From Candidatus Brocadiia bacterium (GTDB taxonomy: Bacteria > Planctomycetota > Brocadiia > SM23-32), in assembly GCA_046538485.1 (NCBI GenBank), contig JBKHIT010000024.1, positions 1 to 64,000 on the forward strand: DNA of 64,000 nucleotides. The letters run 5' to 3'. Below the pieces are notes generated by a model. The model worked only from the letters and a program-made list of their open reading frames with translations. It searched no databases and was not told the DNA's origin. A program made the translations under genes and the position numbers. Below, in pieces: positions 22,739-40,192 of the stretch (position 1 is the first letter of the stretch; each line of letters opens with the position of its first letter).

Positions 22739-24772
22739 ATGCCCGAAGATTTCCCTTTCCTGCTGCCCACAGATAAAGCCAGGCCGGTTAAGAGTATTCG
22801 TCCCTGTGAGCACGTATGCTGTGTGGCCAGTCCGGAGCGAGCAGCAGAAAGTGTCTTTTTCCCGTATGTTCTTCATGGGCATAATTGCGGGCAAAAAGTA
22901 ATGCTTGTGGCCAATTCCCCGCTGTTGTCTTTGTTGAGTAGCAAGATGAAAGAACAGGGGCTGGATTTGCTTGCATGGCAGGAATCGGGGCAGCTTGCTA
23001 TTGTTGCGCCGGCAGATTTTTATCGGCCCAACGGCCATTTCGAGCGGGATGTTGTGGAAAAAAATATTTCGGAAGCCGTGGCCGACGCGCGAGACGAGGG
23101 ATACGATCATCTATATTGGGCGGGTGATTCTTCGTGGATAGGCACAACAAAAGGCGCATTTGGAAGTTTCAGGGGTTATGAGGCGTGTCTGACTGAAATT
23201 GCTCAGAAAGAAGACGTCACTTTTTTATGCTATTACAATCCCGCTACTGTCCAGACAGATAATCTCGCCGGTATAGTCCGTGTGCATCCTTTTATTGCGG
23301 CAGACGGGAAGATTTACAGAAACAAAGCTTTTCTGCCGACAGCTGATTTTCTTGCGGCCGAAAAAAGTCGGAGCCGTGTGAAAAAATGGCTGGCGGGAAT
23401 GAAGAAACCCGGAATGGCTGATAGGCTGGGAAATCAGAAGACTGAACTTCCCGAAATATTTGAGAGTATGTCGGAAATGGTGATGCTTTATGATTCCGAT
23501 CTTAACGTTCAGTGGGCGAATGAAGCAGCATTGGCACGGGTCGATGGGGAACTTGAAGATCTGCTGAACCGCAAATGTTATTCAGTGTGGCAAAACCGCA
23601 ATAAGCCCTGTGAAAAATGCCCTGTCCGGGATGCTATCAAAACAGGCGAATCTCAGACGGGGGAGAAGTCTCTTGCCAATCGTACATACTTTCTTCGTGC
23701 CCATCCGATGTTGAAGCCTGACGGGAACGTAGCGGGTGTAGTCGAGTACGCTCTTGAAATTACCGAGCAAAAGAAGGCGCAAAGAAAGCTGCGACGGGAA
23801 AGATATTTTCGCCGCGCCTTGATCGAAGAATCTCCGGCCTTTTATGTGGCCATTTCGGCTGATGGCAAAATTTTGACAATGAACGAATCGATGCGGCGGC
23901 AATTCGGATACGAAGAAGAAAAAGTCAGGGGACGGGATTATATCAAGACCTTTGTTCCGGAAGAGGACAGGGAAAAACTGGAGGAAGTTTTCGAACGGAT
24001 TGTTCAGGAAGGAGACAGTGTAGTTACGGTCAATCGTGTAAAAAGCCGCGATGGCCATAGGTCGATCGTTAAGTGGCATGGCACGCCAGTTTTCGACGAT
24101 AATGGGGATCTGGAATTTTTCTTTGGAGTGGGTTTGGATGTCACGGAGACTCGTCTTGCGGAGAGGGCATTGGGCAGCAGTCTCGAACAGCTGAGGGGCG
24201 TTTTAAAACAGACAGTCGAAGCTCTGGCATCAACGGTGGAAATCCGGGATCCTTACACTGCCGATCACCAAAGACGCGTCGCTCAACTGGCCTGTGCGAT
24301 CGCGCAGAAAATGGGTTTCTCCCTCGATAGAATTGAGGGTATCAATGTTGCCGCAACGGTGCATGATTTGGGGAAACTACAGGTTCCGGCGGCGATCCTC
24401 GGGAAACCGACTGAACTCGATGAGAGCGAATACGCGCTGGTTAAAACACACTCTGATGTGGGGTACCAGATGTTGGATCCCGTTGATTTTCCCTGGCCCG
24501 TCGCGCAGGTGATCCGCCAGCACCACGAGCGAATGGATGGATCGGGCTATCCACGGGGGATAAAAGGACATGAAATGCTTCCTGAGGCACGTATCCTTGC
24601 TGTGGCCGACGTGGTAGAGGCCATGTCTTCTCACCGCCCCTATCGTCCGGCAAAAGGTGTTGATAAAGCTCTGGAAGTGATTTTTGAAGGGGAGGGTAAC
24701 CTTTTCGATGATGAGGCTGTGGAAGCTTGCATCGCGATTTTCCGTTCGGGCGAATTTAAGTTTCGCGATTAG
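22739..24772 (+). CDS. MEDS-like sensor - PAS - PAS - HD-GYP cyclic dinucleotide phosphodiesterase
   Basis: RDPYTADHQ, HDLGK, HHERMDGSGYPRG, HRPYR; two PAS-like segments; the N-terminus resembles MEDS (EHVCC...FLCYYN). Confidence 0.88.
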   Translation: MPEDFPFLLPTDKARPVKSIRPCEHVCCVASPERAAESVFFPYVLHGHNCGQKVMLVANSPLLSLLSSKMKEQGLDLLAWQESGQLAIVAPADFYRPNGHFERDVVEKNISEAVADARDEGYDHLYWAGDSSWIGTTKGAFGSFRGYEACLTEIAQKEDVTFLCYYNPATVQTDNLAGIVRVHPFIAADGKIYRNKAFLPTADFLAAEKSRSRVKKWLAGMKKPGMADRLGNQKTELPEIFESMSEMVMLYDSDLNVQWANEAALARVDGELEDLLNRKCYSVWQNRNKPCEKCPVRDAIKTGESQTGEKSLANRTYFLRAHPMLKPDGNVAGVVEYALEITEQKKAQRKLRRERYFRRALIEESPAFYVAISADGKILTMNESMRRQFGYEEEKVRGRDYIKTFVPEEDREKLEEVFERIVQEGDSVVTVNRVKSRDGHRSIVKWHGTPVFDDNGDLEFFFGVGLDVTETRLAERALGSSLEQLRGVLKQTVEALASTVEIRDPYTADHQRRVAQLACAIAQKMGFSLDRIEGINVAATVHDLGKLQVPAAILGKPTELDESEYALVKTHSDVGYQMLDPVDFPWPVAQVIRQHHERMDGSGYPRGIKGHEMLPEARILAVADVVEAMSSHRPYRPAKGVDKALEVIFEGEGNLFDDEAVEACIAIFRSGEFKFRD

Positions 24773-25435: not shown

Positions 25436-25672
25436 ATGGTTGTATTAGACCTTGTGAGAGAACTCGATGGTGAAATGAAAGAATTCTTCGAGCGAATCCG
25501 TAATTTTGCGGAAAACTGTCGCGGTCAAATGGTGGCAGAATACAGCGTATTAATGTGGTTTTCCACGCTGTTGGGAGCCGCCGCTCTGGTGACAGTTTTT
25601 TTTGCGTTCGAAGAGAGTATAATCAATTACTACGAGAATATCGTTAAAATAATATGCCTGCCGGTTCCGTGA
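25436..25672 (+). CDS. Flp-like minor pilin
   Basis: RG|QMVAEY prepilin motif, hydrophobic helix, C-terminal LPVP. The start may be ATG 25475. Confidence 0.72.
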   Translation: MVVLDLVRELDGEMKEFFERIRNFAENCRGQMVAEYSVLMWFSTLLGAAALVTVFFAFEESIINYYENIVKIICLPVP

Positions 25673-25709
25673 ACCGGTTACATAGAGTCTCAGAGAGGAG
25701 AGGAAACAA

Positions 25710-25964
25710 ATGAGAAAGATATTGGACAGGTTCAAGAAGCTGGCGCGGAAAGGCCAGACCACGAGCGAATATGTCATTATCCTGGCACTGGTTGCTCTTG
25801 GAAGCATCGCGGTTATCCTGTTGTTTGGTAACCAGGTCCGTGCGCTCTTCGGCGCCGGAACGCGACAGCTCGCCGGAGAAGAGGCAGAACTGGATACCAG
25901 CTACGCCGATGATAGCTCGGAAGCGGAACAGGTCGAGGATATGTCGGACGCTTTCAGCGAATAG
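25710..25964 (+). CDS. flp: Flp family major pilin
   Basis: Strong RBS (GAGGAGAGG), RKG|QTTSEYVIILALVA Flp motif, acidic tail. Confidence 0.9.
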   Translation: MRKILDRFKKLARKGQTTSEYVIILALVALGSIAVILLFGNQVRALFGAGTRQLAGEEAELDTSYADDSSEAEQVEDMSDAFSE

Positions 25965-26090
25965 AACCGGCGAATTCTCTATGTGCCCGACCCGGAACAT
26001 TGGCACGATGTCTCCCCGGAGAAGTTGGCATTTCTTCTGAGGGGGTAAAACATATTCGCGTTCCGGCATACTGTTCGGGGAGTCCCTGAA

Positions 26091-26663
26091 ATGGTTCTGG
26101 CACGGCATTTCCTGCTATTCGCATTGCTGATAATCTGTGTCTACACCGATCTGGCTTCGGGCAAAATTTACAATTGGTGCACTTTCCCGGCTCTGTTTGT
26201 GGGAGTGTTGACCAACTACGTGATCGGAGGATTTACGGAAGGCGGCTGGACGGGGATGAATCTGGTAAGTTCCGCAGCAGGTATAATTCTCGTTCTGGCC
26301 GTTTTTGGCTGGCCTTATCTTCGTGGTGGTATCGCAGCCGGTGACGTGAAACTGATGCTTGCTGTTGGTGGCATCGGAGGGATGCATGAACTATACAGCA
26401 TCTATGCGGTTTTCTACAGCGTTCTTGTGGGCGCGTTGATGGCATTTCTGCTTTTTGTTTGGAAGGGCCGCCTCTGGCAGGGCTTGAAAGGTTCGTTTCG
26501 TTATGCGTTCAGCACCGGAAAAGTAAAAGGAGAAAACTCTGAAGATCCCGGTGAGACTGAAGAATCTGAGAATTCTTTTACGGGCCTGACAATCCCCTAC
26601 GGATTCGCGATCGCGGTTGGCAGCGTAATTGCATGGTACCTGGTTGAAGTTCCTGAAATGTAA
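26091..26663 (+). CDS. cpaA: Prepilin peptidase A24 (TadV/CpaA)
   Basis: YTDL...KIYN, AAGDVKL, IPYGFAI; adjacent to pilins. Confidence 0.9.
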   Translation: MVLARHFLLFALLIICVYTDLASGKIYNWCTFPALFVGVLTNYVIGGFTEGGWTGMNLVSSAAGIILVLAVFGWPYLRGGIAAGDVKLMLAVGGIGGMHELYSIYAVFYSVLVGALMAFLLFVWKGRLWQGLKGSFRYAFSTGKVKGENSEDPGETEESENSFTGLTIPYGFAIAVGSVIAWYLVEVPEM

Positions 26664-26692
26664 AGCGCCGCCAACCCTTTTCGATCGCTGTT

Positions 26693-27463
26693 GTGGCACG
26701 CTCACGGCGCGAGAAAGGAGCGAAAAGGGTGAACAAGGTGATTGAAAACTCAAACAGTGTTGGAAAAACAATGTCGGATAATCCAACACATGTTGTGTTT
26801 TCCAACACTTCTGGGGAAGCGAAGAATCGGCCCGGTTTCCCCCCGGCCGGGCTGGAAGGAGGGCAGGCGATTGCGGAATTCGCAATCGCCTTCCCCCTTC
26901 AACTTTTGATTATGTTTGCTATCATGCAGCTGGCGCTGATCTATGTGGGCAAGCAGGTGACGATCTACGCTTCCTATAGCGCCGCCAGGTCCGCTTTAGT
27001 TGCCGATAGCCCCGCCGATGCCTACCGCCGCGCCCATTTTTCCGCTGCACTCGTCTGTTCTCCCGTCACAGGCCCCACTGTGCGAGGCGGGAACGTCAGC
27101 CCGGCAGAATTTGCTGCGGCCAGGATGGAGGTTCCTGGATGGGGGGAGATTAAGAACAGCGGAGTCTCCAGACGGATGAAAACGCATGTTAGAACTATTA
27201 CGTTTATTCCCGATTGGGAAAACCGGCGTGAAGTCAGCGTAACGGTTACACATTATTTCGAGCTCACGCTTCCTGTGGTAAGCTGGGCATTTGATTGGCT
27301 GCACCGATGGAAAGCGCCAACTATCGAGGATGCGACGGGACGAGAGGGCTCGGTCGCTGTTGCCGATGAGCTTAACTTCGAAGAAGATACGGGCATTTGG
27401 AACGTTGATGCACCCCACATGAGATTGCGAGAACATACGCGGCTTGCTATCCCCGGCCGATAG
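26693..27463 (+). CDS. TadE-like pseudopilin
   Basis: G|QAIAEFAIAFP...YSAARS. The true start is uncertain (possibly 26771). Confidence 0.82.
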   Translation: MARSRREKGAKRVNKVIENSNSVGKTMSDNPTHVVFSNTSGEAKNRPGFPPAGLEGGQAIAEFAIAFPLQLLIMFAIMQLALIYVGKQVTIYASYSAARSALVADSPADAYRRAHFSAALVCSPVTGPTVRGGNVSPAEFAAARMEVPGWGEIKNSGVSRRMKTHVRTITFIPDWENRREVSVTVTHYFELTLPVVSWAFDWLHRWKAPTIEDATGREGSVAVADELNFEEDTGIWNVDAPHMRLREHTRLAIPGR

Positions 27464-27497
27464 ATGCCGTTGGAATGAATGGTAAGGAGAGACCAGA

Positions 27498-30338
27498 TTG
27501 AAGGAATTGAGTAAAAAACTCAAGACTCTCTACAAAGGGGAAGACGGTCAATCCCTGGTGTTCGGGGTTATGACAATCTTTCTGGTCCTGTTTTTCGCGG
27601 CCATGGTAATGGGAGTCGGACGGGTGGCGGCCCGGCGAATTCAGATGCAGTTTGCTGCTGATGCTGCCGCTTATAGCGCCGCGACCGCCGAAAGCGAATG
27701 TCTCAATGCAATATCTCTGATCAATAAAGCGATGGCCCAGGTGCGTGCCCGCTCTCTGCGCTATGTCTCCGATACCTACGCATATGGGTCTCTGAACGAG
27801 CTTCGGGAAAAAGCGACGGAACTGCAAACACTGGCGGATCAGCTTTCTGAACAAATTGAGGATTTGGAGCAACAGCGCGATGCAGAGACGAACCCGGACG
27901 CCAGGGCTGCTCTGGAGGAACAGATTGATATGCTCCAGAAAGAGCTGAGTCTCATCGAGGAAACGACAGGTGGAGAGGCGCCCCCTTCGGGACCAGGCAC
28001 CGATCCCGACTGGGTTCGCGAAATCGTCGGAATAGATCGGGCCGATCTGGAGTATCAAGACGCGCTTCAGACAAGCGAGGATTGGTTGCCAGCGGCCGGA
28101 CGATGGACGCGGGAGCTATCACGGCTCGAACATACAATCGCCATTCTCGCGCCATACCTGTCATCCGAGACGGCTTACGCGGTCGCTCAGAAAAATGGCG
28201 CTGAATACGTCTCTGTTTTTCCCTGCTCTCGCTGGCTCCCGAGAGATGATGCCTACCTCAATGTGGAAGTGTTCCATCCTAATGATGAATGCTGGCGAGT
28301 TCAGGGGGGCGATACCCAACTCGAAGTGTGTACGGAGGATCCGCAAGCTTGGGAAATAACATGGAGGCGCGGCGCCAGTATAGAAGGCCGCTACAGAGTG
28401 GAGCGGCAGGGGGAACACAAGTGGTATCTTTACGATTATATCCGGGATAGCTCTGTATGGATTGACCAAACCACCGAAATAAATGTGGTGACGTGGGGCC
28501 CGGAAGGCATCGAAGTCATACAACATGACGGTTTCATGGAGCTCATAAATGAAAATGGAACACCTCCCAACAATAGACTTTTCGTCCGGCGCATTGAAGG
28601 TGATGATGTGGGGGGCGGGTTGCGCTGGGATGAAGAAGAACAGGCCTGGGTTGAGGGAGGTCCGGCAACGGGGGGAGTAATCGAAATGGTGCCGGGGGAA
28701 GAAGTGCCGGCCGGGGAATTACCGGACGATGACGATTTCAGCCCCTTGCCCTCGCCTGACGTGTCGGTCGATGGCGTTGCGGTGACTGTCAATGTCGATC
28801 CGGTAATTCCGCTGCCAGGCAGTGCCATGGTACATTTGCGACATCCTCCGTTTATCTCTCTTACCGACCGTGGCAATCGCGAGTGGGGTCGAGTATATCT
28901 GTATGAAACTACATATTTTACTGCGAATATTAACGGCGTTCATGCCGAAGTTCGGAGCGGGAAAGTAGATTTGCGGAACCGGGGAGAGAATTTTAATACG
29001 AATCATGCGACGGGGCGTTGGCGAACGCATTTTGACCGGGTGGAAGAATACTGGTGGCAGCACCGTTTCACTGAAGTAACCGACGATTACTACTGGTTGT
29101 ATGAGTACATGGAATTTGGAGCGCGGCTCCAGCCGGAGACAAATTACACCCGTCTGATGGGCCACCGTGATGTTGATGATTCTGCCATGCCTAACAGTGA
29201 GGTGGCAGAAGCAGATTACATGCCGTTCTGGTGTTATGATTCTGACAGCCAACCAGAAGGATGGATCGGTGCGAACAACGGATTGCTCCTGCCCGCCAGT
29301 AACGACGATGAATACGCATACGAAGGGTACTGGGTCGAATTGGTGGATGAAGAAGAGGATATCGTTCATAGCAAATACCATCAGGTGAGGGAATGCTGGA
29401 ATCCTTTTTGCCTCGACGGTATGCTCGACATGGACGGGGACGGCCAAGCAGATGATCTGGACAACGACGGGGTCCCTGATCTGGAGTGCGGGACGTGTGA
29501 TGGCAAAGGCTACGTGGTGATAGGCGGGGAGCAGGTCAATTTCCCGCGGGAAGATGTGCCTTTAAATCTGAATTTTCTGAACGAATATCGGCCGTTGGTG
29601 TTGTCTGAAGATTTCTTCAAATTCGGCGTCACCGTTGGCGTGTGGCACCGGCGTGAAAGCCATTTTCCGGCAGATAACACTTCCGAAGCTCCTCAAAGAC
29701 CCCTTGAATATATGCTTCACGATCCTTCCCCGGGTTTGCGGGGCTTGATGGAAGGCCCGCAGCAACAAACAGCTCGTGAGCGAGGCCAGATACTAAAACC
29801 TGAGTGGGGCTATTTTGCCGTCGCCGGAGCCCGCACAGAACTCGTCACGCCCGGCGCTGCCGATGGACCAGGTGGGCTTGAAGAGGGATGTTATTTCTCG
29901 AATACAACCGAAAGAGAAATGTGGATCGAGGAAAATATGAATAATCTTTATGCCCGGGATTATGCGACAGGCTGGTCATACTGGCGCGCAAGACTGTTCC
30001 CCCTCGATAAACAGGTGCTTGATGAAGATGTGTTGTTGGGGCAGTCTGGAGAGGCCGAAACGGGAATAGGCTGGTTAATGCGGCGAATTGCGTATGGATC
30101 CCCGGGAGGAAGAGAACGGACTCGCCAGGCCAATTTGCCGGTCTGGTACAGTTACGGGCGCCGCCACGGTCATGTTTCGGGTTGGTCGAAGAACATGTAT
30201 GGTCACTACGACCAGTCGTATCCGCCTGAACGCATCCGGCAGGATTTGTTGGAACAGATGCGGGGACCAAGCGTGCAACCGGGTAGCGGAAATCAGTTCG
30301 ATTACAATCAACTCGACGACGAACAGGTATTTCACTGA
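27498..30338 (+). CDS. Large TadG-like pseudopilin (946 aa)
   Basis: G|QSLVF...MQFAADAAAYSAA Tad N-terminal motif; AAGGAG RBS before the TTG start. Confidence 0.82.
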   Translation: MKELSKKLKTLYKGEDGQSLVFGVMTIFLVLFFAAMVMGVGRVAARRIQMQFAADAAAYSAATAESECLNAISLINKAMAQVRARSLRYVSDTYAYGSLNELREKATELQTLADQLSEQIEDLEQQRDAETNPDARAALEEQIDMLQKELSLIEETTGGEAPPSGPGTDPDWVREIVGIDRADLEYQDALQTSEDWLPAAGRWTRELSRLEHTIAILAPYLSSETAYAVAQKNGAEYVSVFPCSRWLPRDDAYLNVEVFHPNDECWRVQGGDTQLEVCTEDPQAWEITWRRGASIEGRYRVERQGEHKWYLYDYIRDSSVWIDQTTEINVVTWGPEGIEVIQHDGFMELINENGTPPNNRLFVRRIEGDDVGGGLRWDEEEQAWVEGGPATGGVIEMVPGEEVPAGELPDDDDFSPLPSPDVSVDGVAVTVNVDPVIPLPGSAMVHLRHPPFISLTDRGNREWGRVYLYETTYFTANINGVHAEVRSGKVDLRNRGENFNTNHATGRWRTHFDRVEEYWWQHRFTEVTDDYYWLYEYMEFGARLQPETNYTRLMGHRDVDDSAMPNSEVAEADYMPFWCYDSDSQPEGWIGANNGLLLPASNDDEYAYEGYWVELVDEEEDIVHSKYHQVRECWNPFCLDGMLDMDGDGQADDLDNDGVPDLECGTCDGKGYVVIGGEQVNFPREDVPLNLNFLNEYRPLVLSEDFFKFGVTVGVWHRRESHFPADNTSEAPQRPLEYMLHDPSPGLRGLMEGPQQQTARERGQILKPEWGYFAVAGARTELVTPGAADGPGGLEEGCYFSNTTEREMWIEENMNNLYARDYATGWSYWRARLFPLDKQVLDEDVLLGQSGEAETGIGWLMRRIAYGSPGGRERTRQANLPVWYSYGRRHGHVSGWSKNMYGHYDQSYPPERIRQDLLEQMRGPSVQPGSGNQFDYNQLDDEQVFH

Positions 30339-31426
30339 TGGATAAAACAAGCGACAAAGCGATTTATAGATCGGTGAGAACCGGGAGTAATCGGGGGCGC
30401 AAAGGGGCCGCTATGACTGAAACAGCGCTTCTTTGCTTTTTTATCTATGTTCCTGTCCTGTTGCTTGTGATCATTGCGGGCGATCTGACCCTCGATAAGG
30501 AAAAAGCCCACGTGGCTTCATCGTACATGGCTTTTCGCGTGGATGCTATCGATGATACGGATTTGAGACACGCGTTTTTTCCGCTCGCAACGGGGTCGGA
30601 CGAGGACGGTTTGTCCGTCCGCACGGTTGCGGTTGAGAGCGATGAAATAGACGAGACTGTGCCGTACACGCTTCCGGAATCCTCTTCCGGCGATTATTCC
30701 GGGGGACCGGCTGAACATCAGGACGATTTGCAGTATAAGCTTTATTCGCTTGCGGTCGGTGAAGTACATGCCACGCGGCAGCTTCAGGCTATGCCCGACG
30801 GGACAGTCCAGTTTATCGAACATCTTGAGCGTGAGGTGGACGATGCGGGGGAATATCTGGCCGAGAATGATATTGTGGAACTCGGCAATCTGCCGGAAGA
30901 TCTTGGGACGCACCCTGTCAATGAGTCTTACGAGCTGCAAACAACCGCGTCTTCCCGGGATTACACTCAATACGTTGCGACATTGACGGATCTGATGAAC
31001 GGTAACTGGAACGCAGGGGGAATCTCAGCGGGGGGGGAGATGGGTGAACTGGTGCCTCGTTTTACGTCCGCCGCGGGACTTCGGACGCATCTGGATTCGC
31101 CTTTCCGCTGGAATCTGCAGGAAACATTCGGGAGCGCTGACAACTACGAAGGGCAGAAAACAGAGTTTGTGATGCATTTTGGCGCGACCGATGAAGTCCC
31201 GGAAGACGACTCTTTTCATGGTGGTTACACGTACCTCCAGAATCCTGAAGCGGTCCCCGACGCGAGTGCTCTGAGAGCTGATTTCTACGAATTGTCTCCG
31301 GATATGTTCACCTGGCAGACCTCGGACGGCAGAAATATTGCTATTTTTGATATGGTAGATCCGTTAAGCAGCGAGCGCGGGCCGGAACATCAGAAATTTC
31401 TTATTCCCGGTGACCCCCGAGACTGA
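30338..31426 (+). CDS. TadE/TadF-like pseudopilin
   Basis: RKG|AAMTETALL plus hydrophobic helix; TGATG coupling to the upstream gene. Confidence 0.72.
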   Translation: MDKTSDKAIYRSVRTGSNRGRKGAAMTETALLCFFIYVPVLLLVIIAGDLTLDKEKAHVASSYMAFRVDAIDDTDLRHAFFPLATGSDEDGLSVRTVAVESDEIDETVPYTLPESSSGDYSGGPAEHQDDLQYKLYSLAVGEVHATRQLQAMPDGTVQFIEHLEREVDDAGEYLAENDIVELGNLPEDLGTHPVNESYELQTTASSRDYTQYVATLTDLMNGNWNAGGISAGGEMGELVPRFTSAAGLRTHLDSPFRWNLQETFGSADNYEGQKTEFVMHFGATDEVPEDDSFHGGYTYLQNPEAVPDASALRADFYELSPDMFTWQTSDGRNIAIFDMVDPLSSERGPEHQKFLIPGDPRD

Positions 31427-31570
31427 TATGAGCTGGAATAAGGGGAGGACAGAGGCGCCACAAAAGATGTTTGAAAAGTAGTTGGTGGGCCCGGCCGCCG
31501 AAAAGTCAGGTTGTGGGAAGGCCGGGTTTTGTTGTTTCCCAGAATCCGTTTTCTTCCGCGAGTGTGCGCA

Positions 31571-32065
31571 ATGTCGGATATGATCGCTAAAACCGTGCTA
31601 TCGGTCCTTGTGGTCGCTGGACTCCTGATATTAGGAGTGATGGTGGCTTTTGTGCGTCCTTTTCACGTGTTGGCCGGATTTCGGGGGCCTGACGAAATGT
31701 TTGTCGCTGGCAAAGATCAACAGATAAAAACAGAGGATAGCACGATTCCCATCCCCCCCGAGACAAAACTGACATTTAGAACCCGGGCGAAACGGGGCAA
31801 TCATTACCGGTATCTAAGCCATTTAAGTGTTGAGGGTTTGCAAAAATTCTACGTGGAGCAAATGCCGAAGTACGGATGGAAACAAGACCCCCGTTTCGAG
31901 CGGGCGAAGCGTCATGAAAACTTGCCTCAGGTCGTTTTGTCTTTTCAAGGCGGGGGAAAGCGATGTATAATTGGATTGGAGCGAAGTGGCCCGTTTGAGA
32001 CAGCGCTCAATGTGGTGATTGTCAGGGCTGGAACCGAGGTAAGTTTCTCAGAAAAAGCCCCTTAG
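31571..32065 (+). CDS. Membrane-anchored hypothetical protein in the Tad cluster
   Basis: N-terminal TM helix, FYVEQMPKYGWK-type motif; lies between the pseudopilins and cpaB. Confidence 0.65.
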   Translation: MSDMIAKTVLSVLVVAGLLILGVMVAFVRPFHVLAGFRGPDEMFVAGKDQQIKTEDSTIPIPPETKLTFRTRAKRGNHYRYLSHLSVEGLQKFYVEQMPKYGWKQDPRFERAKRHENLPQVVLSFQGGGKRCIIGLERSGPFETALNVVIVRAGTEVSFSEKAP

Positions 32066-32131
32066 GCGTGCTGCACGCCCACGATTTTTTTTGCTGGCCC
32101 ACAGAACAAGAGGCCGATAAAGGAGGAGACA

Positions 32132-32947
32132 ATGCGTATCGTTGCTCTGATTGTAGCTATCTTACTCGGTATCGCGGCGGCTGTCGGTATAAAGACCTAT
32201 TTGAATAAGCAGGAAAGAAGTTTTGAGAAAAAACATAAGCCCGAATCAGTGGCCATTGCGAAACATACGATTAAGACGGGTGAGTACCTGGAAGCTACCG
32301 ATATTATGTTCCGCGAGATCCCTGCGAAATCATTGAGTCCGGATCTAATAACCAGAAGCCAATTGAGCAGCTTTATCGGGCGCAAAGTGCAAAGGGAAAT
32401 TGGTGAAGATATGGAGATCAGACGATCTCATTTTGTGGAACGCGGGCTACCGACTGCTGCAGGTAGGCTGGGCCAGGGAAAACGCGCTCTGACTGTTGCG
32501 GTCGATGTTACCAGCGGGGTCGCCGGCCTCGTTCGGCCTGGCGACCGTGTTGATGTATATGCTACCAGCACAGCGGCTACGAGTGGGGCGGCCGGGGCCG
32601 CCAAAGAAACCTGGCTCGTGTTGAATAACGTGCATGTGTTGGCGACCGACACACGTCTTACGGATGTTCCTTTCGGTGGTGATAGGTATCGACAGTACAA
32701 AAAGGGCTACAGCACATTGACGCTTTCGGTTACACCGGAAGAAGCACAGCTCCTCACTTACCTGCAGGACAACGCTAAGCTCACTTTTACACTGCGTAGC
32801 TACGAAGAAGCCGTGCGAACCCGCGATGAATGGGCTGCTCCTCCACCTGTAACGTCCGCAGATGTGCGCAAACGGGCCGAGAAAGCCAACGTGCACCGCC
32901 ATCCGACGGAAATCCCCAAAAAAGAAAAGTCCGGTTCGTCCGAGTGA
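32132..32947 (+). CDS. cpaB: Flp pilus assembly protein CpaB/RcpC
   Basis: SAF-like N-terminus, GKRALTV...GVAGLVRPGDRVDV, TLSVTPEEAQ; AAGGAGG RBS. Confidence 0.92.
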   Translation: MRIVALIVAILLGIAAAVGIKTYLNKQERSFEKKHKPESVAIAKHTIKTGEYLEATDIMFREIPAKSLSPDLITRSQLSSFIGRKVQREIGEDMEIRRSHFVERGLPTAAGRLGQGKRALTVAVDVTSGVAGLVRPGDRVDVYATSTAATSGAAGAAKETWLVLNNVHVLATDTRLTDVPFGGDRYRQYKKGYSTLTLSVTPEEAQLLTYLQDNAKLTFTLRSYEEAVRTRDEWAAPPPVTSADVRKRAEKANVHRHPTEIPKKEKSGSSE

Positions 32948-32995
32948 CGAAACCGCGGGAAGCTTATACGTTATTGCCCTCGCGCGTGCAAAATT

Positions 32996-34696
32996 ATGGC
33001 AAAACTTTCTATTACAGAGAATGGCAACGGTAAAACGATGCCAATCAAAGGCGATCGTTTCGTTATCGGCAAGCGCGACTCCTGCGACCTGGTCATTGAT
33101 GACGAACTTGTCTCGCGGGAACACTGTGAAATAATCCCTCATTCAAAGGGGAAATACTTCCTTCGCGACCGCGACAGTCGGAACGGCACCTTTGTGGACG
33201 GGCAGCGTGTGGGTTCCGACGTGTTGTTAAGGGATGGGATGAAGATACGCGTGGGCAATGTCGAAATAGAATTTTTGGGAGATCGTGTTAAAGGTGGACG
33301 GACAGAAGCCCCCGAAGGGCAGCGGTCGAAATCGGAGAGCACCGGGAAGAAGGCTGAAGGAGCTCGAAGACGTGCATGGCAGCAAGCGCGACCAACCCCG
33401 GTCGATCTGAAGCGGACGATTCATAACGAGTTGCTCAAACGTCTGGATCTGAAACACGAAGACTTCGATGATCAGAGCAGTGAGCAAATTCGTGGGAAAA
33501 CTGTGGCGGTGGCGCAGCAAATCGTCAGCGAAGTTTCCGACCAAATACCGGCCTACCTCACAAAAGATAAGGTTGTTAAAGAAATTGTCGACGAGGCTTT
33601 GGGACTCGGTCCGCTGGAAGATCTTCTCGCCGATCCTGAGGTCGATGAAATTATGGTCAACGGTTGGGATCGTGTGTATGTGGAGCGACACGGAAAAATA
33701 GAGAAGACAAACCTGCGTTTCACGGATAACGTTCAGGTGGTCAATATCATCCGGCGAATCGTCGCTCCGATCGGTCGGCGTATCGATGAATCGACCCCGA
33801 TGGTTGATGCCCGATTGCCGGATGGTTCGAGGGTTAACGCGATTATTACGCCGCTTGCTCTCACGGGGCCAACGCTCACCATCCGGAAATTTGCTGAAGA
33901 ACCGTTTGGTATTAATGACCTGATTTCTTTTGGTACCCTGACGAGGCAGATGTCGAAATTCATTGCCATGAGCGTGCAAAACCGCCAGAATATTCTCATC
34001 AGCGGGGGAACTGGGTCCGGTAAGACGACGTTGCTCAATGTCGTATCCTGCAATATTCCCGGGCGAGAGCGTATTGTGACGATTGAGGATGCCGCTGAGC
34101 TGAATCTGCCACAGGAACACGTGGTGAGTCTCGAGGCGAAACCGCCGAATATACGAGGGAAAGGGGCGATTCCGATTCGGAAATTGGTGATCAATAGCCT
34201 GCGTATGCGGCCTGACAGGATTATCGTTGGTGAGTGTCGTGGGGGAGAGGCGCTGGATATGCTTCAGGCGATGAATACGGGACACGATGGTTCGCTTACG
34301 ACTCTCCACGCCAATTCTCCCCGTGATTCAATGTCACGGCTTGAGACGATGGTGCTTATGGCGGGAATGGAACTGCCCTCGAAGGCGATTCGAGATCAAA
34401 TTACATCAGCCATAAATCTCGTCATCCATACGGCGCGTCTGAGCGATGGTAGTCGGAAAGTAATGGAAATTCAAGAAGTTACCGGTATTGAAAGTGATAC
34501 GATTACGATGCAGTCTATTTATGCCTTTCGGCAACGCGGATATGATGAGGAAGGGAAGGTAAGAGGTTTTTTTACAGCGACCGGCAACGTCCCGGAATTC
34601 GTACAGGAGCTGCGAGAACGCCATATCGACGTCGATATGACCCTTTTTGAGCCTTCGGAAGAGGAAAACGAAGAAAGGGCGGAGAAGCGCAGGTAA
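32996..34696 (+). CDS. cpaF: Flp pilus ATPase CpaF/TadA with N-terminal FHA domain
   Basis: FHA motifs (VSREH, DSRNGT); GLGPLE, GGTGSGKTT, LRMRPDRIIVGE, AMNTGHDG. Confidence 0.95.
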   Translation: MAKLSITENGNGKTMPIKGDRFVIGKRDSCDLVIDDELVSREHCEIIPHSKGKYFLRDRDSRNGTFVDGQRVGSDVLLRDGMKIRVGNVEIEFLGDRVKGGRTEAPEGQRSKSESTGKKAEGARRRAWQQARPTPVDLKRTIHNELLKRLDLKHEDFDDQSSEQIRGKTVAVAQQIVSEVSDQIPAYLTKDKVVKEIVDEALGLGPLEDLLADPEVDEIMVNGWDRVYVERHGKIEKTNLRFTDNVQVVNIIRRIVAPIGRRIDESTPMVDARLPDGSRVNAIITPLALTGPTLTIRKFAEEPFGINDLISFGTLTRQMSKFIAMSVQNRQNILISGGTGSGKTTLLNVVSCNIPGRERIVTIEDAAELNLPQEHVVSLEAKPPNIRGKGAIPIRKLVINSLRMRPDRIIVGECRGGEALDMLQAMNTGHDGSLTTLHANSPRDSMSRLETMVLMAGMELPSKAIRDQITSAINLVIHTARLSDGSRKVMEIQEVTGIESDTITMQSIYAFRQRGYDEEGKVRGFFTATGNVPEFVQELRERHIDVDMTLFEPSEEENEERAEKRR

Positions 34697-34721
34697 ACTG
34701 TAAGTCTCTAAGGAGTTTAGA

Positions 34722-35618
34722 TTGCAGACGGTCTTGCCAGGTATTGTCTTCGCCGCTTTTCTGGGCGACCCCCAGGTCTGGGTGATAATTCTGTGTGTTT
34801 TTGCTGCGGTAGCCCTTTTAGCTTATAGCGGCCTGAGCCTTTTTGGGTCCGGGTGGCAGACCTACGAACAGAGGTACCTTGAAGATGCTGAGCGAAGCCT
34901 TGATGCTATCTATCTGACGATTCCTCCGCAGCACGTAGTGTACCTGTCTTTGGCCTGTTTTGTCGTTGTATCCCTTTTGTGGATATGGCTTTTTGGCAAA
35001 CTCCTCGTAGGGATTTTGTTTGGTCTTATGGGTTTGGCAATACCCAAGATAATATTGTGGTGGTTGAAAAAACGTCGTAATAAAAAGTTCGACCATCAGC
35101 TGGTGGAAGCTTTGACAAACCTCGGGAATTCGCTGAAGGCCGGTTTCAGTTTAAATCAGGCCATGAATTTGCTGGCCCAGGAGATGGACAATCCTATGGG
35201 GCAGGAGATTCGCCTTGTTGTTCGAGAAATGCAGGTGGGGGCGGACCTTTCTGAGGCTCTCGGACATCTCCATGATCGCATGCCCAGCCGAGATCTTGAC
35301 CTTATTATCACTTCAATCCTGATAAGCAGAGAGGTGGGAGGCGATCTTACGGAAATCTTTGACAACATTGCCCATACCGTTCGCGAACGACATCGGATTG
35401 AAGGGAAGATTAAGGCTATGAGTGCACAGGGAAAGCTGCAGGGTTTAATTATCCTGTGTATTCCACCGGGCATGGCCATCGCTCTGAACTATATTGCACC
35501 GGACATGATAAAACCTCTCTTTACCGAACCTGTGGGTTGGCTTCTTATGGGTGTGGTTGTGTTGTTGATGGCGATGGGGATCTATACCATACGACGAATT
35601 GTTGCTATTGAGGTGTGA
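34722..35618 (+). CDS. tadB: Flp pilus platform protein TadB
   Basis: T2SSF-like motifs SLKAGFS, EVGGDLTE, SAQGKLQ. Confidence 0.9.
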   Translation: MQTVLPGIVFAAFLGDPQVWVIILCVFAAVALLAYSGLSLFGSGWQTYEQRYLEDAERSLDAIYLTIPPQHVVYLSLACFVVVSLLWIWLFGKLLVGILFGLMGLAIPKIILWWLKKRRNKKFDHQLVEALTNLGNSLKAGFSLNQAMNLLAQEMDNPMGQEIRLVVREMQVGADLSEALGHLHDRMPSRDLDLIITSILISREVGGDLTEIFDNIAHTVRERHRIEGKIKAMSAQGKLQGLIILCIPPGMAIALNYIAPDMIKPLFTEPVGWLLMGVVVLLMAMGIYTIRRIVAIEV

Positions 35619-36571
35619 GTGGTATGACAGGAGAATATCAGGAGCTTATCTATGCGGTCGCCGTTGGACTCAGCGTGTGCGGAATAATGTTCTATCTGGG
35701 GGCTATGTACGCTGATTACCGGATGCAGGAACGGGCGGAAGTTGAGGAAAGACGTGTTATAGAACAACGCGGAGCGAGCCTGCTGAAGTTTTTGAAACCT
35801 CTTGTAGCATTTTTTGGGCACCTGGTTAGTTCGGCTATACAACGCTTGCAAAGCAGTTTCGGTGATGACGGTATGGTAGGTTATCTGATCCGTTTGCGTA
35901 TCAGAATTCAGAGAGCCGTAACCGCAGCCGGGAGTCCGGGCGGGTTGTCCGGTGACCAGATGCTGGGTCTGGTTTGTCTCAGCGCAATCTGGTGGACGGG
36001 TCTGGGGTTTGTTATCTGGTTTTTGCTCGGGATCAGTTTGCCGATATTTATTGGCCTTGTTGTCGGTTTTGTCCATCCATTCCTCTGGCTGAAGGGCCGG
36101 CTGACTGAGCGGCGCAATGAAATACGCCGTCTGATGCCATACGCTCTCGATCTGTTGACATTAAGTGTTGAGGCCGGGCTCGATTTTACCTCTGCGCTGG
36201 CACGATTGGTCCCGAAACTCAAGGGCTCAGCGCTGGTTGAAGAATTCGAAGAAGTACTGCGCCAGATCCGCCTGGGGCGTTCACGCGCGGATGCGCTTCG
36301 TGATCTGGCCGACCGGGTAAGCATGCCCGAGATGACCGCGTTCTGCGGTTCAATGGTTCAAGCCGATGAGCTGGGAGCGGATCTGGGACCGGTCTTGCGA
36401 ATACAGTCAGACCAGATGCGACAACAGCGGTCAAATCTGGCAGAGAAAAAAGCGATGGAAGCTCCCGTCAAAATTTTGTTCCCCCTCATTGCGTTTATTT
36501 TCCCCACCGTTTTCATCATTCTGTTTTCGCCGATGGGTATCCGATACCTGAAGCGAATTTTTGGATCGTGA
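35615..36571 (+). CDS. tadC: Flp pilus platform protein TadC
   Basis: PYALDLL...EAGLDF, AEKKAMEAPVKILFPL. Confidence 0.92.
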   Translation: MSGMTGEYQELIYAVAVGLSVCGIMFYLGAMYADYRMQERAEVEERRVIEQRGASLLKFLKPLVAFFGHLVSSAIQRLQSSFGDDGMVGYLIRLRIRIQRAVTAAGSPGGLSGDQMLGLVCLSAIWWTGLGFVIWFLLGISLPIFIGLVVGFVHPFLWLKGRLTERRNEIRRLMPYALDLLTLSVEAGLDFTSALARLVPKLKGSALVEEFEEVLRQIRLGRSRADALRDLADRVSMPEMTAFCGSMVQADELGADLGPVLRIQSDQMRQQRSNLAEKKAMEAPVKILFPLIAFIFPTVFIILFSPMGIRYLKRIFGS

Positions 36572-36975
36572 AACGGTGGCAAGTTTCAGATAAAATTGTG
36601 TCGGATAGTATGAAAGAATTAAAAATGGTAGAACGTAATACGGGCCGGGTTCTGCTTGGAAATGTAAAAGCAGCTATCGGTCCGGTTGAGCGATTCACTG
36701 GTTTGATGGGAAGAAAATCGCTCAAAGCTGAAACGGGAATGTATTTCCCGCATTGTAGTAGCATTCACATGTTTTTTATGCGTTTTGCCATTGATGCTGT
36801 GTATTTTGATCGTGAGTATCGGATCAAAAAAATAGTGAGTTACCTCAAACCCTGGCGTCTCTCCTGGTGCCCGGGCGGAGATTCTGTGCTCGAAGTGCCC
36901 GCCGGTTGGTGTGAGGAGATTGGACTTGAAGTAGGTACCAGAGTGGAATTCCAGGAAAAAAAGAAATCAGACTGA
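36568..36975 (+). CDS. DUF192 family protein
   Basis: RFTGLMGR, SIHMFFMRFAIDAVYFD, VLEVPAG. The start may be 36610 or 36625. Confidence 0.85.
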   Translation: MKRWQVSDKIVSDSMKELKMVERNTGRVLLGNVKAAIGPVERFTGLMGRKSLKAETGMYFPHCSSIHMFFMRFAIDAVYFDREYRIKKIVSYLKPWRLSWCPGGDSVLEVPAGWCEEIGLEVGTRVEFQEKKKSD

Positions 36976-38246
36976 TGCGATTAAGATTCAGAGTCCTGAA
37001 CACGTCTTTGAAAGGTCTCGAATTTGAGACCGATAACGATACTGTAAGAATCGGGCGTGCAGCCTCCAATGACCTGGTTCTCCGGGAACAGTCAGTCTCG
37101 CGCCGACATGCCACGATCGAAGCATCCGATGGGGAACTGACGGTACGGGACGAAGGGAGCCGGAACAATACGAAAGTTGACGGGGAAGAAATCGACGTGG
37201 AAACGCCGATTTCCGAAAACAGTGTCTTGGCGTTTGGTGACGTAATAGTTCAGGTTTCGTTGCCCGACCAGAGAGTTGTGGATGAAGAAGAGAGCGAGAT
37301 TACTCCCGAAGCAGCAGCTCTGGCTGAAGTAGAGAATGAGGCGCTCGAATCGCCCGCAGAAGAAAAATTTGCTGAAGCTGCAGAACAGTCGGCGCTGACG
37401 ACCCCCGAGGGGAAGGGTATTGAGAAAGCCGAGAAAAGCCCCCCGGCAATCGGCAGCGCGGAAGAAGCGATCGAGCGAAAATTCTGGCCAGTGCTGACAC
37501 TTTTGTGCGGAATAGCAATTGCTGGTCTGCTGATTCTTTATTTCCTCAATTCCAGCGGGGAGCTCGATAAAGCGAAGGGGACAATGGCGATCGCTTTGCG
37601 AGTGGGAAAGAGCAAAGTTGTTAAGGTGCCGACGGGATTTGTGGATAAATGGACCGTTCAGCCCCCGGAGCGTGTGAAAGTGGAGCGACCGTGGAAAAAC
37701 CTCAATTACTTGCTCCAGCTCACAGGAGGATCCCGCGGCATTACCATCATTAAACTCTATAACAAGCAGGGCGATCACGTCGTAATCTACGCTAACGTTC
37801 TACCTCGAAAACGTGAGGAGGTCGGAGAAGGTAGTACCGAAGTCTCACGGTCAAAAACAGAGCGATTGGTGGAAGCACGAAACTGTATCCGGCGTGCAGA
37901 GCTTTTCCGAGAGCAGGACGATATTTACATTGCTAAGAAGGAATACGAGAAGGCTATCAAAATCCTCGAATCGCTTGAACGTGATGCCCCTTCGGAGTTG
38001 AGCCTGGCTATCGAATGGCAAGACGAGCTCGAAGCTCAAATAGAGCGAAGATATGACCAGCTGACCTTTGACGTTTCCAATTTATTGAAAGTGGGTGAAC
38101 GTCGTCGAGCCCTTGAAAAACTGGCACAAATAAAAGCCTTGATTCCAGATGAATCGGACGTTCGATGGCAAAATGCCGATCTGCTCTATCGTATGGTCGA
38201 GCGGATCCTGCGAAAAAAAGAAGAACAAACTCGGAGAGGATTGTGA
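36975..38246 (+). CDS. FHA - acidic linker - TM - pilus-N-like Ig domain - helical protein
   Basis: IGRAASND...VSRRH...SRNNT FHA motifs, a single TM, a beta-rich domain, then TPR-like helices. Confidence 0.8.
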   Translation: MRLRFRVLNTSLKGLEFETDNDTVRIGRAASNDLVLREQSVSRRHATIEASDGELTVRDEGSRNNTKVDGEEIDVETPISENSVLAFGDVIVQVSLPDQRVVDEEESEITPEAAALAEVENEALESPAEEKFAEAAEQSALTTPEGKGIEKAEKSPPAIGSAEEAIERKFWPVLTLLCGIAIAGLLILYFLNSSGELDKAKGTMAIALRVGKSKVVKVPTGFVDKWTVQPPERVKVERPWKNLNYLLQLTGGSRGITIIKLYNKQGDHVVIYANVLPRKREEVGEGSTEVSRSKTERLVEARNCIRRAELFREQDDIYIAKKEYEKAIKILESLERDAPSELSLAIEWQDELEAQIERRYDQLTFDVSNLLKVGERRRALEKLAQIKALIPDESDVRWQNADLLYRMVERILRKKEEQTRRGL

Positions 38247-40192
38247 AGTTCATCGTCCAAGAAGGTGATACGGAGTACGAATTCTTGCTCTCGCCCGGTC
38301 TCTACATCGTAGGCCGGGATCCGACCTGTGATCTAACCCTCGATTCCCAACGAGTATCAAGGCGTCATATGAGTTGTACGGTGACCGAAGATCACGTGAC
38401 CGTGAAAGATCTGGGAAGTCGTAACAGTATCCGAATCGGAGGCGTAAAAGTTGATGAGGCCACGTTGCGCGACGGAGACGAACTTCATGTGGCCGACGTT
38501 CGTTTGAAGTTCAAAGGAGATGCGGGAGGAGCTTCGGCAATTCCGGCTAATAAGAAAGATGAGCCTGTCGAAGCACACGAGGCCGTTCTGGAAAATGATG
38601 AAGAAACTCCACCCGAAGGCGCTCTTGTGCCCGAAGAAGAAGGCGGGAAAAAGCCCGAAGTTACCCAGAAAGATGGACGATGGTTCGTTACCGATCCGAA
38701 TACAGGGAGAGAGGTTGAAATTGTTCCGGCCGGAGAGGAAAAAACCGGCAAGAAATCTAAAAGTCTCCTGAGCACGACCAAAGGCAAAATAATTATCGGA
38801 GGATTGGCGGTGGTTGTGATCGGGCTCTTTGTGGCCGTGGGACTAACCAGCGGCCCCCCGGAGAATAGCGGGTTGTCGCTTAATCGCCAACAATTCAACC
38901 GAGAGATCGCATTTGCCCTTAAGGCCCTGCGCAACGGGGATTCGAAGAAAGCCAGTCACCACGCTTCGCGAATACTGAAAACCCGCCCCAACAGTGAGGT
39001 GGGAGAGGTGCTGGGAGCCCTTGCGGAAAACTGGGGTCCATATCAGGAAAATTTCTTCGAGCAATGGATGGATATGAAAGAATTGCTTGAAGATTTGAAA
39101 ATGAGTCACAGTAACCGTGAAGTGAGCAATTTTGTGACCGACTATCAATCCGAAATTGCGCGTGTTCTGGCAGACGATAAAAAGGCCAAAGAAGCCGAAA
39201 AGAATTACGAAGAAGGAGATTTTGAGTCCGCCTGGCAAAAACTTGTGGAGGTCCCGGAAAACAGTCCCGTCCGGGAAAAATATGCCGAACTTTTCCGGAA
39301 AGTTCATGAAGATTTCCTTACGAGAATTCAACGTCGGATTGACGCAGCAGTCGGCCGAGAAAACTGGAAAACAGCCCTGAAATGGTCGGAAAAACTGGGG
39401 AAATACTATCCAGATAAAAAACAGGAAGCTGAAGAGAAAAAAGAGGAGTTCGATCAATATATCTTACATGCCGAGCTTATCGAGAAAGCCGTGAACGCAA
39501 TCGAGGAGGGGAATTACAAAGAAGCTGTCCAGGCGCTTCGCCAGGTGCCGCAGGAAAGCGCTTGCTACCAGAGAGCTCAACGACTTCTTGCAAGTGCCGA
39601 ACAAGGAAATGAGCTCAAGATAGCAGATGACTTTTACGATGGTGGGAACGCCAGGAAAGCGTTGGAAGTTCTCCAAAAGCTTGAGAGCCCCCTTGCAAGA
39701 GCGAGGGCGCGGGATATCGAGACGGCTTTCGAAACGTATCAAGCTGCTGAAAAAGCGGAAGCCGAAAAAGATCTTGTGACAGCCGAACAAAAGTGGAATG
39801 AACTACAAAATCAGGTCGACGACAGAGATAATTATTACTGCAGGCAGGCCGATAATGCGCTGGACAGTATTGATGTGAGACGAGCTAAACGCGCTGAGGA
39901 AATGCTTGCTCAGGGACGTGCTGCTCTGCAAAAAGATGAGTTCGAAAGGTCGCGCGATCTCTTTGAGAAGGCGAGACGAATGGACCCCAATGAGGAACTC
40001 GGTATCGAAGCGCTTAAAAGGCTCCAAAAACAAGGACGCAAAGTGTACAATCTGGCTATGAACGAGATAGACGAAAATCCGAAAGGGGCGATGCAAAAAC
40101 TGGAACAAGCAATGCGTATGTTGGCCCATGACGATCCTTTTTATCGATTGGCTCAGGACGCAAAAGAGGAACTGGAAGGGCAATTTAAATGA
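38243..40192 (+). CDS. FHA - acidic linker - TM - TPR-like protein
   Basis: GTG 38243 overlaps the upstream stop (GTGA); VGRDPTCD...VSRRH...SRNS; TM IIIGGLAVVVIGLFV; helical repeats. Confidence 0.8.
   Translation: MKFIVQEGDTEYEFLLSPGLYIVGRDPTCDLTLDSQRVSRRHMSCTVTEDHVTVKDLGSRNSIRIGGVKVDEATLRDGDELHVADVRLKFKGDAGGASAIPANKKDEPVEAHEAVLENDEETPPEGALVPEEEGGKKPEVTQKDGRWFVTDPNTGREVEIVPAGEEKTGKKSKSLLSTTKGKIIIGGLAVVVIGLFVAVGLTSGPPENSGLSLNRQQFNREIAFALKALRNGDSKKASHHASRILKTRPNSEVGEVLGALAENWGPYQENFFEQWMDMKELLEDLKMSHSNREVSNFVTDYQSEIARVLADDKKAKEAEKNYEEGDFESAWQKLVEVPENSPVREKYAELFRKVHEDFLTRIQRRIDAAVGRENWKTALKWSEKLGKYYPDKKQEAEEKKEEFDQYILHAELIEKAVNAIEEGNYKEAVQALRQVPQESACYQRAQRLLASAEQGNELKIADDFYDGGNARKALEVLQKLESPLARARARDIETAFETYQAAEKAEAEKDLVTAEQKWNELQNQVDDRDNYYCRQADNALDSIDVRRAKRAEEMLAQGRAALQKDEFERSRDLFEKARRMDPNEELGIEALKRLQKQGRKVYNLAMNEIDENPKGAMQKLEQAMRMLAHDDPFYRLAQDAKEELEGQFK

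Follow-up and report, generated by a model that had tools for sequence, protein, structure and literature searches.

An FHA-type Tad pilus operon built from Kil-like parts, without a secretin of its own, in Candidatus Brocadiia and other Planctomycetota

Kil-type pili have been proposed as a speciality of predatory bacteria, and FHA-dependent assembly of Kil at contact sites is described as an open question (PMC8460266, PMC12428579). As described for Myxococcus xanthus, the Kil machinery is encoded in split clusters and includes an FHA-fused motor ATPase, a prepilin peptidase, the KilC secretin, an export gate belonging to a partner, needleless T3SS (type III secretion system; T3SS*) and up to four tips (PMC8460266; PMC12075869); KilC is reported to be essential in this organism (PMC8460266). 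FHA fusion to the ATPase has also been published as class III CpaF, a mostly betaproteobacterial group in which, as in Achromobacter CpaF, an FHA domain, an intrinsically disordered region and the ATPase core form one chain (PMC12019362). Here, we analyze a stretch of 64,000 nucleotides from a Candidatus Brocadiia bacterium (assembly GCA_046538485.1, contig JBKHIT010000024.1, positions 1 to 64,000; the window), which carries a Tad pilus operon with an FHA-fused TadA at positions 25436 to 40192. A preliminary description, made from the sequence alone, had called this cluster Kil-like and predation-type and proposed a contact-dependent killing or cell-contact apparatus. We find that the locus is best read as a contact-sensing pilus variant, because the Kil parts match but the outer membrane pore and the signs of killing are lacking.

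The operon consists of 14 open reading frames (ORFs), all on the plus strand (Table 1). Pfam and NCBIfam profiles matched an A24 peptidase, TadE, Tad, RcpC/CpaB, FHA plus T2SSE, two T2SSF proteins, DUF192, and two FHA proteins. Both Flp pilins and the third pseudopilin lacked a Pfam match at an E value of ≤0.01; they were identified by their prepilin cleavage motif and hydrophobic helix and by the homologues that relatives encode at the corresponding position. No TadZ, no secretin, and no recognizable effector gene was found in the operon. Every gene named in the preliminary description is present on this strand, but its inventory had overlooked the 184-amino-acid gene at 31511 to 32065, and the last gene most likely starts at 38243 rather than at 38165; relatives align from the codon at 38243, which overlaps the preceding gene by 4 bases. 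The "many overlapping" stop and start codons are found at 5 of the 13 junctions (overlaps of 1 or 4 bases), while the remaining 8 have gaps of 25 to 126 bases. Scans for promoters and terminators performed at chance level (14 versus 12.9 and 20 versus 18.0, respectively). A chance origin of the operon can be excluded because the same gene order recurs in relatives, with TadA identities of 65 to 73% within the family. Homologues of the 184-amino-acid gene precede cpaB in 21 planctomycete loci and are weak in other FHA-Tad loci; homology to a 268-amino-acid ORF of Myxococcaceae was considered and rejected, since no profile match was obtained.

To represent Kil, we used loci L042 and L126 of Citreicoccus inhibens, assigned by gene order against the locus tags given in PMC8460266 and PMC12075869; the named loci come from the best 80 of 601 matches of a genome scan. 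Locus L126 reads TadE, TadG, TadE, two ORFs, a small pilin, further ORFs, CpaB, TadB, TadC, and two successive FHA proteins, and its backbone is that of the window. Like the published Kil system, the window operon has an FHA-fused ATPase without TadZ, a prepilin peptidase, three tip genes in the same order, a CpaB-TadB-TadC block followed by two homologous FHA membrane proteins, a KilP-like pilin, and a candidate KilK-like pilin. It differs in being a single operon with one tip and with no KilC or T3SS export gate, and in carrying a DUF192 gene and a secretin-N-like domain in its first FHA membrane protein.

Table 1. Genes of the FHA-Tad operon in the 64,000-nucleotide window
Feature	Position	Strand	Evidence
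Small Flp-type pilin with C-terminal L-P-x-P; candidate KilK-like adapter pilin	25436..25672 (start may be 25475)	+	C-terminal ending shared with relatives
Major Flp pilin, 84 aa, KilP-like	25710..25964	+	Pilin identity and profile scores
Prepilin peptidase TadV/CpaA (KilA equivalent)	26091..26663	+	Pfam Peptidase_A24, E 2.6e-13; both catalytic-type aspartate motifs
Minor pilin 1, TadE-like (KilM position)	26693..27463	+	Pfam TadE, E 1.2e-8; order as in Myxococcaceae tip genes
Giant TadG-like tip pilin, 946 aa (KilN position)	27498..30338	+	Tad profile, 22.2 bits (cut-off 22.3)
Minor pilin 3, 362 aa (KilL position)	30338..31426	+	No Pfam match; prepilin-like N terminus, one hydrophobic helix; same-position relatives match the TadE profile
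Conserved membrane-anchored protein, 184 aa	31511..32065	+	One hydrophobic segment
CpaB/RcpC alignment protein (KilB equivalent)	32132..32947	+	Pfam RcpC, E 1.2e-24; TIGR03177, 139 bits
FHA-fused motor ATPase TadA/CpaF (class III; KilF architecture)	32996..34696	+	FHA at residues 23-87 plus T2SSE; Walker A and B intact
TadB platform protein (KilG)	34722..35618	+	Pfam T2SSF, E 4.5e-22
TadC platform protein (KilH)	35615..36571	+	Pfam T2SSF, E 4.3e-18
DUF192 protein	36568..36975	+	Pfam, E 1.2e-22
FHA membrane protein 1: FHA, disordered linker, membrane helix, beta-sandwich, helical tail	36975..38246	+	Model pLDDT 84.8
FHA membrane protein 2, 649 aa: FHA, linker with T-P-x-D/E, membrane helix, TPR-like periplasmic part	38243..40192 (open frame from 38165)	+	Profile matches

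We next compared the system with other Tad pili by phylogeny. In a 168-row TadA tree, the window fell in a 40-row planctomycete clade (support, 99) in which no row has an in-locus secretin. A 55-row tree of concatenated TadA, TadB, and TadC placed canonical systems apart from a group of FHA-TadA and TadZ-TadA-fusion systems (SH-aLRT, a Shimodaira-Hasegawa-like approximate likelihood ratio test, 96/91). After six long-branch rows were left out (L183, L052, L178, L177, L034, and L013), the pruned 49-row core tree (LG+G4) recovered the FHA/fusion branch and the planctomycete clade at 100/99 each and grouped Kil with systems of Acidithiobacillus, Thauera, Piscinibacter, Halofilum, and others at 99/98. 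TadA, TadB, and TadC did not group with TadZ-type adhesion systems in the core tree, as the preliminary description had anticipated for a Kil relative. Approximately unbiased (AU) tests rejected no alternative, neither a planctomycete-plus-Kil clade (p-AU, 0.30) nor a planctomycete clade beside canonical systems (p-AU, 0.24, and 0.12 on the pruned set); the latter result does not place the clade inside canonical Tad, because the constraint is also satisfied when the clade is the deepest FHA branch. Our reading of these trees is that the planctomycete system belongs to the same family as Kil, as an old and separate branch, and that nonpredators lie nearer to Kil than it does.

Other relatives help to define the type. 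The Acidithiobacillus, Thauera, Piscinibacter, and Halofilum loci likewise have an FHA-fused ATPase, lack TadZ, encode a related long major pilin, and fall on the same side of the core tree. Unlike the window operon, these class III loci keep a CpaC secretin, mostly lack FHA membrane proteins, and have mostly decayed FHA sites. The canonical Tad/Cpa pilus, as described for Caulobacter (PMC13170226), shares TadA/B/C, CpaB, TadV, Flp, and TadE/G-type minor pilins with the window, which differs in having FHA modules instead of TadZ/CpaE, in lacking CpaC/RcpA, and in forming a separate clade. The Bdellovibrio Tad machine (bioRxiv 10.64898/2026.07.08.737194) falls on the same side of the core tree, but it has a TadZ-TadA fusion and a secretin rather than an FHA-TadA.

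FHA modules and TadZ excluded each other in our comparison: an adjacent TadZ was found for 0 of 84 FHA-TadA genes versus 59 of 77 plain TadA genes. The FHA domain of the window ATPase has K-S-H-N at its phospho-binding positions, with Lys replacing the usual Arg. This variant occurs in 33 of 40 planctomycete ATPases, and R-S-H-N is found in 28 of 32 and 24 of 33 copies of the two FHA membrane proteins and in all 21 ATPases of the Myxococcota set. Among mainly proteobacterial rows without FHA membrane partners, the sites are mostly decayed, and no more than 3 of 12 retain both Ser and Asn. FHA domains prefer pThr-x-x-Asp. In 12 of 23 loci, the FHA protein 2 linker contains a T-P-x-D/E motif (2.2 in shuffled sequences, with a maximum of 7), which is also present in the ATPase linker in 11 of 41 (shuffles, 1.4); it was seen in 1 of 31 copies of FHA protein 1 and in no Myxococcota row. 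The host genome contains 17 kinase matches above the Pfam cut-off, none of them on the contig of the operon.

Each FHA membrane protein has a counterpart in Kil and contains, past its FHA domain, a single hydrophobic segment. Using planctomycete-only profiles, we found that the tail of FHA protein 1 matched the first Myxococcaceae FHA protein after tadC (probability, 96.0) and not the others (2.4 and 0.2), while FHA protein 2 matched the second (97.4) and the KilD-position protein (96.1) but not the first (0.5); because the matched regions are helical repeats, this one-to-one homology rests on specificity and not on score alone. The model of FHA protein 1 (predicted local distance difference test score [pLDDT], 84.8) consists of FHA, a disordered linker, a membrane helix, a seven-strand domain at residues 202 to 276, and a helical tail. 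Compared by hhalign with the N-terminal domain of the CpaC secretin, the seven-strand domain gave probabilities of 93.9 and 94.5, and Pfam T2SS-T3SS_pil_N (PF13629) matched 7 of 29 members of the family, the window copy not being among them. An atlas search with residues 160 to 423 of FHA protein 1 gave no match. These comparisons suggest that FHA protein 1 carries a secretin-N-like beta-sandwich. The CpaC of Caulobacter has a beta-sandwich at its N terminus; CpaI, which bridges both membranes, has one too, and CpaB has been modelled as packing on it (PMC13170226).

A secretin was absent from all 42 FHA-Tad planctomycete loci, several of which end at contig ends. Of the 56 genomes that carry such a locus, 52 lack any CpaC-type secretin; the other 4 have a match at an E value of 1e-80 or better, with the copy in G010 lying in a canonical Tad locus, that in G028 beside a plain TadA, and one further case (G041) being ambiguous. 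Other secretins are found in 55 of the 56. The host genome, which is 88% complete, has three secretin-domain genes, none of CpaC type; they include a 259-amino-acid lipoprotein-like protein with a shortened secretin domain (G000:C69:59959-60738) and an 855-amino-acid secretin with a long C-terminal extension (G000:C39:8293-10860), both of which are candidates for a borrowed pore. Outside Planctomycetota, FHA-Tad loci without an in-locus secretin were seen in one Lentisphaeria and two unclassified genomes (L014, L016, and L034), and L024, L032, and L038 retain one.

We then examined the pilins. Compared with the single best Flp per genome, the major pilin is 46 to 47% identical in two genomes of the Myxococcota set and 34 to 42% identical in three others, bearing out its proposed likeness to the myxobacterial Kil pilin. 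With a planctomycete-only profile, Myxococcota-set pilins scored 75 to 87 bits, proteobacterial FHA-Tad pilins 49 to 67, and canonical Flps ≤48; we infer that the Myxococcaceae match is the KilP orthologue. The likeness claimed for the minor pilin holds in part. Its L-P-x-P C terminus recurs in most small pilins of planctomycete relatives and in that of L126, a kil cluster II locus from Myxococcaceae, and it matches the KilK-position pilin over the full profile length, but generic Flps score equally on the N-terminal helix. By analogy with the adapter described in PMC12075869, it is a candidate adapter.

The AlphaFold2 model of the 946-amino-acid tip pilin (pLDDT, 84.7) shows long helices and a large beta scaffold, an architecture that echoes the published description of KilN4 (PMC12075869). 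Searched as a whole model, by which single-domain matches may be missed, it had no Foldseek match at an E value of ≤0.001, and its best VIA match (Z, 8.9) was to a helical hairpin; an atlas search returned nothing usable. Members of this tip family were detected, mostly as a single gene, in 54 of 56 FHA-Tad planctomycete genomes but in 0 of 6 planctomycetes that lack such a locus; the host genome has a single match. Homology to the tips of Myxococcales is confined to the first ~90 to 110 profile positions, with the order of the trio unchanged; Myxococcales genomes have up to three tip matches, mostly aligned at the N terminus only. In one relative, G010, the tip pilin gene is split into two overlapping frames (L094:11638-14720). 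The host also encodes four TadG-like genes and a DUF192 gene away from any Tad core (G000:C38:47552-56262). These TadG-like genes are canonical in type and weakly related to the operon tip, two of them form a 1,493-base duplicate at 99.9% identity, and they are probably tips of a canonical Tad system. Two stand-alone canonical-type Flp genes lie at G000:C63:1019-1306 and C100:15323-15544.

The comparison does not support DUF192 as a Kil feature or FHA fusion as a sign of predation. A DUF192 gene follows tadC in 36 of 84 FHA-TadA loci and in 28 of 77 plain-TadA loci, and none was detected in L042 or L126, the Kil loci of Myxococcaceae; its occurrence in plain-TadA loci rejects it as a Kil marker, and it is a general companion of tadC. 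The FHA-fused TadA is of the class III kind, reported mostly from betaproteobacteria (PMC12019362), and the Acidithiobacillus, Thauera, and Piscinibacter systems lie nearer to Kil.

To place the host, we compared HisD from the same contig, which shares 61% identity with a member of the same family, 49% and 48% with two other planctomycetes, and 38% with a Myxococcaceae genome; a fifth genome gave no match. These identities reject a Myxococcota origin and agree with the preliminary assignment to the planctomycetes. Anammox bacteria are members of the class Candidatus Brocadiia of the Planctomycetota (PMC12758564), and the class of the host includes genomes whose HZS_alpha is identical to the alpha chain of hydrazine synthase in PDB 5C2V. 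An anammox host was rejected, there being no HZS_alpha match in the host genome (G000; 5.19 Mb). The contig is planctomycete and the host is a nonanammox member of the class that holds the anammox bacteria. The genome encodes acetyl-CoA synthase, HisD, and CarAB, and the host looks like an anaerobic prototroph.

The operon type is widespread in the phylum. Across 60 relatives, a TadA match covering the FHA domain was obtained for 9 of 30 same-family genomes, for 6 of 9 from five other families (1/1, 4/4, 1/1, 0/1, and 0/2), and for 0 of 21 from two families with anammox-type HZS matches. In a sample of 300 Planctomycetota genomes, counting matches that start at query position ≤51 and excluding fragmentary ones, at least 41 genomes in 24 families had such a TadA. 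Gene order was near-invariant in the loci compared, among them 20 phylum loci picked from these 41 genomes' matches for long contigs. Several planctomycetes have at least two FHA-Tad loci with tips of different sizes (L107, L108, and L109 in G001; L145 and L153 in G198; L141 and L187 in G273), and a single-contig genome, G069, has a divergent one. We found no description of this locus type in the open-licence literature; the CpaF table of PMC12019362 may include planctomycete class III members.

We favor, with a probability of roughly 0.55, a phosphorylation-gated Tad (type IVc) pilus of the Kil family that would serve controlled contact (attachment or sensing) with surfaces or partner cells and exit through a borrowed secretin. 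By analogy with Kil and Caulobacter, TadV would mature the pilins, the three minor pilins would form a tip that the small L-P-x-P pilin couples to the major-pilin filament, and the FHA-ATPase would power extension and retraction on TadB/C. A Ser/Thr kinase may phosphorylate a threonine, for example that of the T-P-x-E motif in the FHA protein 2 linker, after which all three FHA domains may assemble the motor at the phosphorylated spot, positioning being the task of TadZ in canonical systems. The beta-sandwich of FHA protein 1 may replace the CpaC N-domain or CpaI and bridge the CpaB ring towards the secretin of another system. Consistent with this reading, a single operon, conserved across 24 families and devoid of TadZ and secretin, encodes the peptidase, the pilins, CpaB, FHA-TadA, TadB/C, and both FHA membrane proteins, FHA and TadZ are mutually exclusive, FHA sites are kept, the genome has its 17 kinase matches, and the beta-sandwich has homology to CpaC. 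The absence of FlhA/SctV from the host, its acetyl-CoA synthase, HisD, and CarAB, and the position of nonpredators nearer to Kil point the same way, as does a single tip conserved over its full length, unlike the several variable tips described for Myxococcales (PMC12075869).

Several observations weigh against it. The operon contains no kinase, and the phosphosite is a motif count among related, nonindependent sequences. The beta-sandwich seen in FHA protein 1 may be no more than an Ig-like domain of a generic kind, because the window copy has no Pfam match and the matches of the fold search were filled by the FHA domain. Lack of an in-locus secretin is not special to the FHA type, because some canonical planctomycete Tad loci (C127, L132, L181, and L182) share it. 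Finally, both FHA membrane proteins are shared with Kil and mostly missing from the proteobacterial systems, which makes the window locus more Kil-like in regulation.

The last point bears on the first alternative, a contact-dependent killing machine like Kil that attaches via the giant tip pilin and kills or feeds on other microbes. Homology to Kil runs part by part, including the one-to-one FHA membrane proteins and both pilins; FHA sites are intact as in Myxococcota, the two systems share a side of the core tree, an exclusive clade of the two is compatible with the AU test, and the regulatory parts are more Kil-like than those of proteobacterial systems. In addition, the Myxococcus T3SS* is reported to be needed for lysis and not for killing (PMC12075869). 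Against killing stand the absence of KilC and of a T3SS export gate, the single tip gene, and the lack of a recognized effector gene. The host genome has no FHIPEP (FlhA/SctV-family) match; FlhA/SctV is missing from 29 of 56 carriers and present in 27, flagellar and nonflagellar forms pooled, and two Myxococcota controls gave two matches each. The Acidithiobacillus and Thauera systems nearer to Kil belong to nonpredators, so that relatedness to Kil does not by itself imply killing. Among the rows listed in Supplementary Data 1 of PMC12075869, which covers complete genomes only and includes generic Kil-gene matches in planctomycetes, there is no KilB, KilC, KilG, or KilH match for Uabimicrobium amorphum, a planctomycete that engulfs its prey. 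The host, in addition, looks like an anaerobic prototroph. We therefore consider killing unlikely; of the two functions first proposed, a cell-contact apparatus is plausible and contact-dependent killing is a minority reading. It is likewise doubtful, though worth stating, that many uncultured planctomycete lineages might rely on a kinase-triggered pilus, homologous to Kil, that has lost the secretin it once had and moved a secretin-N-like domain to an inner membrane FHA protein, for contact predation or parasitism by the conserved 946-amino-acid tip in anaerobic, acetyl-CoA-synthase-bearing cells.

A second alternative is a periplasmic or uptake/secretion machine, in which a short piston or fibre in an enlarged periplasm, or through a shared secretin, would move macromolecules. 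The absence of secretins from the loci and of CpaC types from most carriers would fit such a machine, planctomycete fibres and an enlarged periplasm have been discussed as an uptake system (PMC12673574), and the conserved single tip suggests a conserved ligand. However, the dedicated Flp major pilin most resembles the filament-forming KilP type, nearly all carriers have other secretins that could be shared, and within the profiles used, the loci share no conserved gene for a cargo or a transporter, which leaves this explanation improbable. Least probable by our estimate is an ordinary, constitutive adhesion pilus with vestigial FHA domains, for which the wide occurrence of class III CpaF already described (PMC12019362), the unrejected placement beside canonical systems, and the Lys in the ATPase FHA domain can be cited, but against which stand the conservation across the phylum of FHA sites and of two dedicated FHA membrane proteins, the separate canonical TadZ-type locus of the host on contig C127, and best trees that separate FHA and canonical types.

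That second locus (G000:C127:26166-35319) encodes TadE, CpaB, TadZ, TadA, TadB, and TadC and no secretin. Its TadA is a 960-amino-acid tandem of two complete ATPase domains, both of which have the Walker A and B motifs; G010 and G028 carry this tandem as well, and its two halves form separate clades. The 752-amino-acid CpaB of C127 has a long repeat-rich extension that by eye resembles WD40. Immediately upstream of the FHA-Tad operon, positions 20230 to 24772 of the window encode a PilZ-plus-TerB protein and a MEDS-PAS-HD (HD_5) protein; in the relatives' loci compared, neither the HD-GYP nor the PilZ gene is a conserved neighbor of the operon. Positions 23 to 8318 encode two large TPR proteins, of which one has a CHAT (caspase-like) domain, and the GC content of the window steps from about 50% to about 57% at ~46000.

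Together, these results describe a system that is built from Kil-type parts, yet we do not class it as Kil, because a secretin, multiple tips, and T3SS* were looked for and each was lacking. New here are the secretin-less loci, the secretin-N-like beta-sandwich in an FHA membrane protein, and a conserved 946-amino-acid tip with an unmatched fold. As a single-operon version found in 24 planctomycete families, it separates a conserved core (FHA-ATPase, two FHA membrane proteins, and adapter and tip pilins) from predator add-ons (KilC, multiple tips, and T3SS*), and it names a candidate phosphosite for FHA-based assembly. It also poses the question of how a Tad pilus crosses the outer membrane without a secretin of its own, and it warns that Kil homology alone is insufficient for calling predation.

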